Part shown: positions 45,223 through 45,811 of the stretch, in pieces
How the letters are laid out: each line of letters opens with the position of its first letter
Position numbering within the stretch: position 1 is the first letter of the stretch
Sequence record: ON782582.1
Direction: 5' to 3' (one strand)
From: Escherichia phage ECP52
Length of the DNA: 64,000 nt
The notes under the pieces: model-generated
Told to the model about the DNA's origin: nothing
Databases searched by the model: none
What the model saw: only the letters and a program-made list of their open reading frames with translations
Position numbers and translations under genes: made by a program

Positions 45223-45245
45223 ATGAAAATCGCTGAGATTGAACT

Positions 45246-45332
45246 ATGAGTTCATTATGGTGGTGTTTTGTTTGGTTAATTAGTATTCCAGTAATTTGTT
45301 TAACATTTACTTTTGTGATGAGGTTATTATGA
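45246..45332 (+). CDS. tiny hydrophobic peptide (28 aa), speculative
   Basis: ATG after an 8-codon leader ORF; hydrophobic. Confidence 0.2.
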   Translation: MSSLWWCFVWLISIPVICLTFTFVMRLL

Positions 45333-45427
45333 AAATTTTGAATTCTGTACTTATTGCTTGTGCGTGGTGGGTTGCGCAAGTTTCAGCAGTAGTAGTTGGT
45401 ATTCACATTTATTACGAATATTTTTAA
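45329..45427 (+). CDS. tiny hydrophobic peptide (32 aa), speculative
   Basis: ATGA-coupled to previous. Confidence 0.2.
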   Translation: MKILNSVLIACAWWVAQVSAVVVGIHIYYEYF

Positions 45428-45434
45428 AAAAGTT

Positions 45435-45464
45435 GTTTACAAGACTGTTCCTCTGTGGTATTAT
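45435..45464 (+). promoter_or_regulatory. T4-type early promoter
   Basis: GTTTAC, 18 nt, TGGTATTAT. Confidence 0.55.
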
Positions 45465-45492
45465 TACCCTATCAACTACGGAGGAACAGAAA

Positions 45493-45606
45493 ATGAAAAA
45501 GATTGTTAAAGCTATATGGAATGTAGTTATAATACTAGTAGTTTTGAGTATATTCCCAATCGTTTTAATGATTGATGTATTAAACGTTTACTTTGGATTT
45601 ATGTGA
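45493..45606 (+). CDS. small membrane peptide (37 aa)
   Basis: ACGGAGGAACAG RBS then ATG; one TM helix. Confidence 0.35.
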   Translation: MKKIVKAIWNVVIILVVLSIFPIVLMIDVLNVYFGFM

Positions 45607-45613
45607 GGAAAAT

Positions 45614-45811
45614 ATGAAGCGTAAACGCAGTGCTTTTACATTTATTGAATGGTTTTTCGATAATATTTTTCCGGCTTTATTCATTTTCATGCTGATTTTT
45701 GCCTTAGGTTCAGTTGTAGTTGGAATCTATTTGATGGCAGTAGTCGGAATGGATATTCATCAAAATGGTTTAAAATCCGCGGTTGAAACAATTTGGAATG
45801 GTGTAAAATAA
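45614..45811 (+). CDS. small membrane protein (65 aa)
   Basis: GTGAGGAAAAT RBS then ATG 45614. Confidence 0.4.
   Translation: MKRKRSAFTFIEWFFDNIFPALFIFMLIFALGSVVVGIYLMAVVGMDIHQNGLKSAVETIWNGVK

Follow-up and report, generated by a model that had tools for sequence, protein, structure and literature searches.

The region from 45223 to 45906 of the Escherichia phage ECP52 sequence analyzed here (64,000 nucleotides of record ON782582.1, hereafter the window) is, with a probability that we put at about 85%, the ndd.6 to ndd.2 block of a T4-like phage (Tequatrovirus), part of the non-essential region that runs from denB to ndd. We consider it almost certain that its small open reading frames (ORFs) are real genes and orthologues of ndd.2 to ndd.6. 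The block is already known, and T4 annotations carry ndd.6 to ndd.2; the T4 reference (AF158101.6 / NC_000866.4) labels ndd.6, ndd.5, ndd.4, ndd.3/ndd.2a, and ndd.2 “hypothetical predicted membrane proteins.” An initial annotation of the window had taken the peptides to be unrecognized, which is incorrect: each has an entry in the T4 reference, and PHROG and Pfam families exist. Its remark that standard annotation misses them holds only in part. In EO1, the closest record, none of the block’s ORFs is annotated, and a CDS matching the 28-amino-acid (aa) ndd.6 is found in 0 of 8 further Tequatrovirus records checked.

Gene content and order of the block

The features of the block and its flanks are the following:

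44583..45140, + strand: denB (endonuclease IV), upstream flank; 185 aa, 99.5% identical to T4 DenB
45128..45228, + strand: early-promoter cassette, PeSL-like; -35 TTTACA at 45157-45162, -10 TACTAT at 45180-45185, conserved leader, Shine-Dalgarno (SD) GGAG, and ATG
45223..45249, + strand: 8-codon mini-ORF (MKIAEIEL), relic of an 87-aa gene (phrog_2390); its TGA overlaps the ndd.6 ATG
45246..45332, + strand: ndd.6 orthologue, 28 aa, one putative membrane helix; 100% identical to T4 Ndd.6
45329..45427, + strand: ndd.5 orthologue, 32 aa, one putative membrane helix; 100% identical to T4 Ndd.5
45436..45464, + strand: second early promoter, TTTACA-N17-TATTAT with a TG extension; from a promoter scan
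45493..45606, + strand: ndd.4 orthologue, 37 aa, one putative membrane helix, own GGAGG SD; phrog_3098
45614..45811, + strand: 65-aa gene, the true form of T4 “ndd.3/ndd.2a,” DUF7248; Pfam PF23906, phrog_2401
45793..45906, + strand: ndd.2 remnant; a 12-nt in-frame deletion took the ATGATG start; from alignment with T4
45915..46130, + strand: ndd.1, downstream flank, 71 aa, soluble; 97% identical to T4 Ndd.1; phrog_2183

The window keeps the T4 gene order rIIB, denB.1, denB, ndd.6 through ndd.1, ndd, stp, ac, 52.1, and 52. The position of the block between denB and ndd.1, its internal order, its strand, and its two early promoters are all as in T4, and the peptides share 91–100% amino-acid identity with their T4 counterparts. 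Phage EO1 is 100% identical to the window over 44500-46200 and 93–98% identical in the other parts compared. None of the records searched carries 36000-56000 at ≥99% identity, and the window was therefore taken to come from a mosaic Tequatrovirus and not from EO1 itself. A profile search matched 5/5 products from ndd.6 to ndd.2 to PHROG families, with hits over the full profile for Ndd.6 (phrog_8851, E = 1.6e-17, positions 1-28 of 28), Ndd.5 (phrog_5011, E = 3.6e-26, positions 1-32 of 32), and Ndd.4 (E = 2.3e-21, positions 1-37 of 37). Full-length ndd.6 is present in 493 phage records, and ndd.5 homologues were found only within Tequatrovirus. A single copy of ndd.4 occurs in 595 phage genomes, about 100 of which carry it at ≤80% identity; those sampled from this group come from other genera and are 58–67% identical. 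Downstream of the block, Ndd.1 was detected early in T4 proteomics (PMC9697503 data). The ndd gene just beyond it carries a +1 frameshift in the window that fuses ndd to stp.

The six ORFs of 8, 28, 32, 37, 65, and 24 codons listed in the initial annotation are all present at these sizes. The span given for them, 45223-45811, contains the first five, but the 24-codon ORF lies outside it at 45832-45906. Two of the six had been taken for peptide genes and are remnants. The 8-codon ORF is what is left of an 87-aa gene, intact in T6: the start codon and the final seven codons. It is identical to the 8 codons that end the 87-aa ORF in T6, slur02, and others. The 87-aa protein of these relatives is the one that matches phrog_2390. 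A deletion spanning from one ATGAAA repeat to another removed the 87-aa gene and left the mini-ORF as an in-frame scar; the dN/dS of the mini-ORF, 0.71, gives no sign of constraint on the peptide.

The 24-codon ORF is in fact an N-terminally truncated ndd.2. The 12-nt deletion, common to the window and EO1, removes ATGATGAATTTG, the first four codons of the gene, and these 12 nt are kept in 18/18 other Tequatrovirus sequences. A full ndd.2 of 35–36 aa is found in 17 of those 18, with slur02 frameshifted. No complete ndd.2 ORF with its own ATG stands directly after the 65-aa gene in the window; the residual frames run for 37 codons from a TTG at 45793 or for 24 codons from the ATG at 45832, and phrog_4135 is matched only at profile positions 18-41, from the internal ATG. 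Judging by this sequence, ndd.2 is probably weakly expressed or dead here.

The T4 reference gives ndd.4 as a 42-aa gene, unlike the 37-aa ORF of the window. The ATG of the longer form reads ACG here and in most relatives, and the 37-aa form is therefore the likely product; the T4T record annotates it as 37 aa too. For Ndd.4 there is also a newer Pfam family, PF26889, which in this analysis appeared solely as a precomputed label for chimera P0007.

The older T4 reference likewise shows two genes, ndd.3 and ndd.2a, where the window has one 65-aa ORF. Since the ORF is intact in re-sequenced T4 (MT984581.1) and in T4T (HM137666.1), both of which carry an extra G, the split reflects one missing base, either a mistake in AF158101.6 and X75802.1 or a trait of the substrain behind them. 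The same two sequences rule out a natural frameshift of the T4 lineage. Pfam PF23906 (DUF7248) matches residues 6-63 of the product at 69.4 bits against a gathering threshold of 27. In alignments, the N-terminus is basic, there is a single hydrophobic helix, and the C-terminal motif reads NGLKSxVETIWNG, the same architecture as in DUF7248 and phrog_2401, where the family motif is NGLKSxVExIWNG. The AF2 model is all-helical, with helices at residues 4-17 and 19-63 and a pLDDT of 82. Proteins of ~900 aa returned by the DUF7248 profile search were rejected as homologues, as their repeats, such as ETVWNGIKS, are a motif resemblance. A literature search found no mention of “ndd.2a” or “DUF7248.”

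Early promoters and translation signals

The initial annotation had placed a cassette copy before the ORFs and a second early promoter near 45435, and both were confirmed. The segment 45128-45228 occurs in four copies in the window, the others lying at about 18664, 37150, and 48547, and the second promoter aligns as a degenerate copy of the cassette. Two promoters are marked in the T4D record X75802, and they correspond in position to the pair here (45157-45185 and 45436-45464). The sequences of this pair, TTTACA-N17-TACTAT and TTTACA-N17-TATTAT, match the PeSL early-promoter consensus TTTACW-N17-TAYWAT (Comeau 2014, PMC4122927), and the ndd.4/ndd.5 locus, compared between T4 and PST, is a worked example of PeSL in that study. 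The cassette at 45128 resembles the PeSL cassettes of T4-type phages (Arbiol 2010, PMC2839356; PMC4122927) in its promoter consensus, its repetition in the genome, and its place at a boundary of gene gain and loss: relatives differ in whether 68-aa and 87-aa genes directly follow it. It differs in that conservation extends downstream beyond the promoter and takes in the leader, SD, and ATG. A scan for strong, terminator-type stem-loops detected none from 45100 to 45160; on the + strand, the closest one, at 44677-44691, is inside denB. In T4 RNA-seq, ndd.2 to ndd.6 are classed as early (PMC9697503 Table S2), in agreement with the early transcription claimed for the ORFs, and the promoters at 45157 and 45436 drive the block immediately upon infection.

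Good ribosome-binding sites had been ascribed to the later ORFs. Sequence inspection showed sites before the 32-aa (GAGG, 6 nt upstream), 37-aa (GGAGG, 8 nt upstream), and 65-aa (GAGG, 6 nt upstream) ORFs and no clear site at the 24-aa or the 28-aa ORF. The 8-codon ORF has a GGAG 7 nt upstream. Ribosomes would thus enter at the strong SD sites of the 8-codon ORF, ndd.5, ndd.4, and the 65-aa gene, and ndd.6, which has no SD, would be translated by ribosomes that terminate on the adjoining upstream ORF. We infer this coupling because the ndd.6 start overlaps or abuts the upstream stop in every genus examined. The junction is ATGA in Tequatrovirus (45246-45249 in the window), GTGA in P479, TTGA in dhabil, and TTGAGTAA in CIP9 and L011, and in an STML-198-like contig the ATG is 6 nt past the upstream TAA; in total, the arrangement is seen in 5/5 other genome types examined, with ATG, GTG, or TTG as the start. 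A further ATGA overlap joins ndd.6 to ndd.5 at 45329-45332. The 8-codon deletion scar thus appears, by happenstance, to keep the translational coupling of ndd.6.

Probable membrane location and candidate functions

The best 19-residue Kyte-Doolittle means of the 28-, 32-, 37-, and 65-aa ORFs are 2.17–3.05, which fits one membrane helix apiece, while that of the 24-aa ORF is only 0.41. The initial annotation was right that the frames are hydrophobic. The ndd peptides are likely to insert in the inner membrane, where the positive-inside rule predicts an N-in, C-out orientation for Ndd.5, Ndd.4, and the 65-aa protein. An action on the host membrane is plausible, and the peptides would most likely bind or perturb inner-membrane components of the host early in infection.

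Bacteria have single-helix proteins of 20 to 65 aa that act within the inner membrane, among them AcrZ, MgrB, TisB, and Ibs/Ldr. AcrZ and MgrB bind larger membrane proteins; TisB and Ibs/Ldr disrupt the membrane itself. Their likeness to the ndd peptides is one of analogy, with no homology in Pfam and NCBIfam searches, and no NCBIfam model matches any of the peptides. The size and hydrophobicity of the ndd peptides also resemble those of type I toxins and holin-like peptides. By that analogy, they might be host-toxic depolarizing or pore-forming proteins that aid host shut-off rather than acting by specific modulation of membrane proteins or lipids. We regard this as quite unlikely. Cloning of small immediate-early genes of T4 is in many cases lethal to the host (PMC6071114), yet the peptides match none of the toxin families in Pfam or NCBIfam, and 50% of the burst remains after deletion of the whole region, which makes the block non-essential (PMC6071114).

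For the favored reading, in which the peptides engage inner-membrane components, a lipid effect is the one phenotype so far traced to a deletion in which they are lost. T4-induced stimulation of phosphatidylglycerol (PG) synthesis is lost in the saΔ9 deletion (PMC6071114). This deletion is 3.4 kb long and covers about a dozen genes, also taking denB, ndd, stp, ac, and 52.1 (PMC6071114), and for that reason the link to the ndd peptides is a lead only. It is doubtful that they are responsible for the saΔ9 phenotype. A fuller version, in which Ndd.6, Ndd.5, Ndd.4, the DUF7248 protein, and Ndd.2 would jointly be the T4 determinant that switches host phospholipid synthesis to PG by binding inner-membrane lipid-synthesis or stress-sensing proteins, must be considered a long shot. 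Ac (52 aa here) and gp52.1 are, like the ndd peptides, early, small, hydrophobic products of the non-essential rIIB-52 region that are lost in saΔ9, with no detectable sequence similarity to them. The Ac phenotype is acridine resistance, whereas the ndd peptides have no known phenotype.

Coding status and alternative readings

The ndd.6, ndd.5, ndd.4, and 65-aa ORFs are genuine coding genes. Across 19 Tequatrovirus sequences, dN/dS is 0.12 for ndd.6, 0.07 for ndd.5, and 0.08 for the 65-aa gene, versus 0.6 to >8 (one undefined) in the other two frames. Counted at first, second, and third codon positions, variable sites number 2/1/10 in ndd.5 and 7/4/25 in the 65-aa gene. Variable sites are concentrated at third positions (5/9, 10/13, 25/36, and 15/23; pooled p = 2.2e-10). 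Within Tequatrovirus, ndd.4 has no synonymous excess (variable sites 4/1/2, dN/dS 1.7, only 7 substitutions), and its coding status therefore rests on cross-genus conservation, with 17 invariant columns across five genera and a conserved KAIWN...IFP..ID. Homologues of ndd.6 occur in four other genera, with W6, C7, W10, I14, and P15 invariant. At the protein level, ndd.6, ndd.4, ndd.2, and the 65-aa gene have counterparts in other Tevenvirinae genera: the interval from denB to ndd contains them in Dhakavirus, Gaprivervirus, and Kanagawavirus phages, as well as in the STML-198-like contig and a 177-kb IMG/VR contig. The reading frames are conserved in related phages, one of the two points on which the initial annotation had let its proposal stand or fall. 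A literature search found no T4 ribosome-profiling data, and in T4 proteomics ndd.2 to ndd.6 are all “NA,” not detected (PMC9697503 Table S2). Paralogy based on a common “IFP/SIP” motif was rejected (Smith-Waterman against 2000 shuffles, p ≥0.05 for all 21 pairs), as was an RNA element instead of coding sequence (no Rfam match at E up to 1 over 44400-47100).

Length variation common to several sequences is confined to an intergenic A-run. Frame-breaking changes within the ORFs are rare and each is in one sequence sampled: a nonsense codon in the 65-aa gene of T2, a +2 indel in ndd.6 of L006, and a +1 indel in ndd.2 of slur02. Together with the 12-nt deletion in the window, these sporadic disruptions suggest weak selection. 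They could also be read as decay, the genes being dispensable leftovers on their way to loss from this phage, where the 87-aa gene is deleted, the ndd.2 start is lost, and ndd is frameshifted into stp. That is improbable, as four genes (ndd.6, ndd.5, ndd.4, and the 65-aa one) retain an intact frame and their start signals and agree at 97–100% identity with a consensus drawn from about 490 genomes, and no disruption in a relative is found in a second sampled sequence.

Another possibility is that the frames are translated merely as leader or upstream ORFs that tune ndd.1-ndd-stp expression or mRNA stability, with functionless peptides. The tight packing, partial overlap, and single early transcript upstream of ndd would suit such a role, and the 8-codon ORF looks like a pure coupling device. 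Nevertheless, the low dN/dS and the invariant WC..W...IP of Ndd.6, KAIWN...IFP..ID of Ndd.4, and NGLKS..TIWNG of the 65-aa protein indicate selection on the amino acids, X75802 annotates a separate ribosome-binding site for ndd, and DUF7248 also occurs in unrelated phage contexts without ndd, all of which makes this account very improbable.

Open frames that arose by chance in a non-coding, T-rich hyperplastic spacer and are hydrophobic through T-rich codons can practically be dismissed: the region is 40% T, the six frames of the window hold 42 hydrophobic small ORFs, many in the wrong frames of real genes, and T4 mass spectrometry detected none of the proteins, but purifying selection and third-position enrichment are frame-specific, the SD sites are strong and correctly spaced, the peptides are 37–67% identical in genera where DenB is only 45–62% identical, and 1000 shuffles of the region gave a mean of 0.20 hydrophobic small ORFs and never the four observed. 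Nowhere else in the 64-kb window are there as many as three per 720 nt on the + strand.

With the block read as a set of conserved T4-like genes, automated phage annotation omits these small selected genes inconsistently, and the value of recording them lies in clean-up rather than discovery. The block provides four well-defined conserved candidates for work on phage membrane microproteins or for a hunt for the PG-stimulation gene; apart from such uses, it is an ordinary segment of a T4-like genome. If the joint role in lipid switching, long shot as it is, were true, the ndd block would be the long-sought PG-switch determinant, and the saΔ9 phenotype, so far without an assigned gene, would gain one.

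The ndd.6-ndd.2 run in ECP52

Six very short ORFs had been proposed downstream of denB in the initial annotation, and all were found in the sequence at the lengths claimed:

45223-45249, + strand, 8-codon ORF (MKIAEIEL)
45246-45332, + strand, 28-aa ORF (ndd.6)
45329-45427, + strand, 32-aa ORF (ndd.5)
45493-45606, + strand, 37-aa ORF (ndd.4)
45614-45811, + strand, 65-aa ORF (DUF7248)
45832-45906, + strand, 24-aa ORF (ndd.2 remainder), slightly past the range first given

The window phage is T4-like and belongs to Tequatrovirus. The 1.7 kb around the block matches phage EO1 at 100% identity and T4 at ~96%, and the T4 gene order is kept (rIIB, denB.1, denB, the block, ndd.1, ndd, stp, ac, 52.1, 52). 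Identity to EO1 is 100% over 43300-46632 and 93-98% elsewhere, and the best other phage records are ~95-96% identical, none reaching 99% in the collection searched; the window is a mosaic Tequatrovirus, not EO1 as a whole. The T4 reference annotates the block as ndd.6 (28 aa), ndd.5 (32 aa), ndd.4 (42 aa), ndd.3 (26 aa), ndd.2a (40 aa), and ndd.2 (36 aa), with the products of ndd.6 to ndd.2 labelled "hypothetical predicted membrane proteins." The window peptides are 91-100% identical to their T4 counterparts and match PHROG families 8851 (ndd.6), 5011 (ndd.5), 3098 (ndd.4), 2401 (65-aa), and 4135 (ndd.2), and the 65-aa ORF scores 69.4 bits against Pfam DUF7248 (cut-off 27). Given the T4 annotation, the peptide identity, and these family matches, the run is a rediscovery of annotated genes, T4 ndd.2-ndd.6.

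The initial observation is confirmed and its interpretation partly supported. That such peptides are missed by annotation holds for the EO1 record, which has none, and for eight other Tequatrovirus records, where a 28-aa ndd.6 CDS appears in 0/8, but not for the T4 reference. Hydrophobicity fits the predicted membrane helices for the 28-, 32-, 37-, and 65-aa products (Kyte-Doolittle 19-residue mean 2.17-3.05) but not for the 24-aa product, whose best mean is only 0.41.

Properly spaced Shine-Dalgarno motifs lie 5' of the 8-codon, 32-, 37-, and 65-aa ORFs. No such motif precedes the 28-aa ORF; its ATG and the 8-codon ORF's TGA overlap, and the 32-aa ORF start overlaps the 28-aa ORF stop, likewise as ATGA. 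Promoter-like sites at 45157-45185 and 45436-45464 fall at the same positions as promoters annotated in T4D record X75802; the site at 45436-45464 is the second early promoter suggested near 45435. The block is the sole + strand site in 64 kb with at least three hydrophobic small ORFs per 720 nt, and 1000 shuffles of the region gave a mean of 0.20 such ORFs and never reached four. The cluster is not a chance outcome of T-rich DNA. Further small hydrophobic ORFs on the coding strand were seen at 3499-3714, 19638-19787, 46738-47029 (ac at 46738-46896 and 52.1 at 46889-47029), and 48359-48508.

Coding constraint within and across genera

The alignment of the block covered 19 Tequatrovirus sequences.

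Variable sites by codon position and in-frame dN/dS in the block
ndd.6: 3/1/5; dN/dS 0.12
ndd.5: 2/1/10; dN/dS 0.07
ndd.4: 4/1/2; dN/dS 1.7 (7 substitutions only)
65-aa gene: 7/4/25; dN/dS 0.08
ndd.2: 5/3/15

The third-position excess, pooled over all but ndd.4, has p = 2.2e-10, and the remaining two frames gave dN/dS from 0.6 to >8 (one value undefined). Within the genus, ndd.4 is uninformative because its DNA hardly varies (7/110 sites; pS 0.012 across 45493-45606 in the window and relatives vs 0.10-0.16 in adjoining ORFs). A recent sweep, recombination, or additional RNA constraint could lie behind this unusual invariance. The only length variation common to several of the 19 sequences is in an intergenic A-run. 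In T2 (locus L013 1380-1577, MH751506.1), a nonsense codon (GGA to TGA) stands at position 45 of the 65-aa gene, and the 44-aa product annotated in phage ELT1 (P0004) is the same truncation.

The frames are conserved in related phages, and the evidence for genes is stronger across genera than within Tequatrovirus. Homologues occur between denB and ndd in Dhakavirus (dhabil), Gaprivervirus (P479), Kanagawavirus (CIP9), an STML-198-like contig, and a 177-kb IMG/VR contig, with DenB only 45-62% identical across the loci measured. Residues W6, C7, W10, I14, and P15 of Ndd.6 are kept, as are 17 columns of Ndd.4 (including KAIWN, IFP, and ID) and the C-terminal NGLKS..TIWNG motif of the 65-aa protein. 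ndd.4 is present at one copy per genome in 595 phage genomes, and ndd.6 was found in 493. A DUF7248 profile search of 1.84 billion representatives returned 28 clusters, mostly 47-76-aa proteins of the same architecture; both clusters looked up (2/2) were in phage-like contexts. Four large proteins of tape-measure-like appearance (P0011, P0016, P0025, and P0035; 820-976 aa) carry tandem repeats (ETVWNGIKS etc.) resembling the DUF7248 C-terminal motif ETIWNGVK, which is probably motif convergence.

Remodelling of the locus

As first noted, a cassette copy precedes the run: the PeSL-type early-promoter segment at 45128-45228 recurs at ~18664, ~37150, and ~48547. Comeau et al. chose this locus (ndd.4/ndd.5, T4 vs PST) as an example of cassette-mediated gene exchange (PMC4122927). 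Directly after the cassette, relatives have a 68-aa gene, an 87-aa gene, both, or neither. Two natural chimeras join the DUF7248 C-terminus to the N-terminus of Ndd.4 (Shigella phage Sf25 gp120, P0007) or Ndd.5 (a T4 variant, P0008), presumably by deletions inside the block.

The 8-codon ORF is not a peptide gene but a remnant, the last eight codons of the 87-aa gene (phrog_2390). T6, slur02, phiD1, and AR1 are among the phages with an intact copy of this gene; its end there (...NEMKIAEIEL*) overlaps the ndd.6 start by the same ATGA. In T4, EO1, and the window, its body is absent between the start ATGAAA and an internal ATGAAA, a kind of deletion that necessarily preserves the reading frame. 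The same scar (MKIVEIEL, MKMVEIEL) follows another upstream gene in T2 and RB32, and the peptide has no sign of its own constraint (dN/dS 0.71).

The ndd.6 start touches the upstream stop in every genome type examined, whichever ORF precedes: ATGA in Tequatrovirus, GTGA in P479, TTGA in dhabil, TTGAGTAA in CIP9 and a further locus (L011), and an ATG 6 bases past TAA in the STML-198-like contig. Since this junction is kept although start codon and partner vary, there is good indirect evidence that ndd.6 is translated by termination-reinitiation coupling. Dhabil (L016 1390-1420) also has a decayed second ndd.6-like start (GAGTAGGTTCTGGCG...) after a 63-aa ORF, besides an intact ndd.6 behind an 87-aa-type gene, which points to two types of module in which an upstream gene precedes ndd.6.

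The 24-codon ORF, one of the tiny ORFs first listed, corresponds to the last two-thirds of ndd.2. ATGATGAATTTG was lost through a 12-nt deletion that keeps the frame, a change common only to the window and EO1 among the sequences examined. The frame is open back to TTG 45793 (37 codons), with no Shine-Dalgarno site there. From these two features, ndd.2 in ECP52 would be dead or, if expressed, only weakly so from an unusual start codon.

The T4 reference itself appears to need correction. At the "ndd.3" start, AF158101.6/NC_000866.4 and X75802.1 read ATGAA-CGT, whereas re-sequenced T4 (MT984581.1) and T4T (HM137666.1) read ATGAAGCGT and have a single 65-aa ORF of the same length as in the window. 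One G is absent at 2276-2281 of the reference locus (L001) relative to 1217-1222 of the two re-sequenced loci (L032/L033), and likewise in X75802.1. Because both re-sequenced genomes have the extra base and an intact ORF, "ndd.3" (26 aa) and "ndd.2a" (40 aa) of NC_000866 are artefacts of a missing base in one 65-aa gene. The 42-aa ndd.4 of the reference needs an ATG that overlaps the Shine-Dalgarno site and reads ACG in the window and most relatives; translation probably gives the 37-aa form.

Two changes were seen downstream. At 46629-46650 (T-run at 46633), the window reads GTTTTTGCAGG vs GTTTTGCAGG or GTTTTACAGG in EO1 and the eight other relatives that have this stretch; three more distant relatives, differing in sequence there, likewise keep the frame. 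The extra T turns the Ndd C-terminus from ...FKFVLQAY* to ...FKFVFAGIL and joins ndd in frame to stp as one ORF (46193-46730). The cause may lie in a homopolymer sequencing error, or Ndd and Stp may really be fused. In the stp hairpin (46710-46725), the loop is inverted (GGCGTC-CGAA-GACGCC vs GGCGTC-TTCG-GACGCC in seven relatives), changing the Stp C-terminus from KGVFGRQ to KGVRRRQ; this looks like a hairpin-inversion (template-switch) mutation.

Expression, location and possible function

Tiny hydrophobic peptides are difficult to see by tryptic mass spectrometry, so the non-detection of the ndd.2-ndd.6 products in T4 is weak negative evidence. In T4, RNA-seq classed ndd.2 to ndd.6 as early, and proteomics detected Ndd and Ndd.1 but none of ndd.2 to ndd.6 (PMC9697503 Table S2). 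No mention of ndd.2a or DUF7248 was found in the literature searched.

By the positive-inside rule, we expect Ndd.5, Ndd.4, and the 65-aa protein in the inner membrane, N-terminus in and C-terminus out. AF2 models the 65-aa protein as helical along its whole length (pLDDT 82). In our judgement, the sequences give no support to the "outer membrane" labels of the T4 annotation: they have single hydrophobic helices but lack a signal peptide or β-barrel.

The denB-ndd-52.1 region is dispensable; the T4 deletion saΔ9 removes 52.1, ac, stp, ndd, ndd.1-6, and denB, with burst still 50%, and abolishes the post-infection stimulation of phosphatidylglycerol synthesis (PMC6071114). The analysis also yielded useful by-products: it traced the 8-codon ORF to its origin, pointed to a conserved coupling of ndd.6, and brought out the truncation of ndd.2 and the T4 reference error. 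The phosphatidylglycerol phenotype is the sole concrete lead on block function, and our best guess is that the block proteins would modulate host inner-membrane components early in infection.
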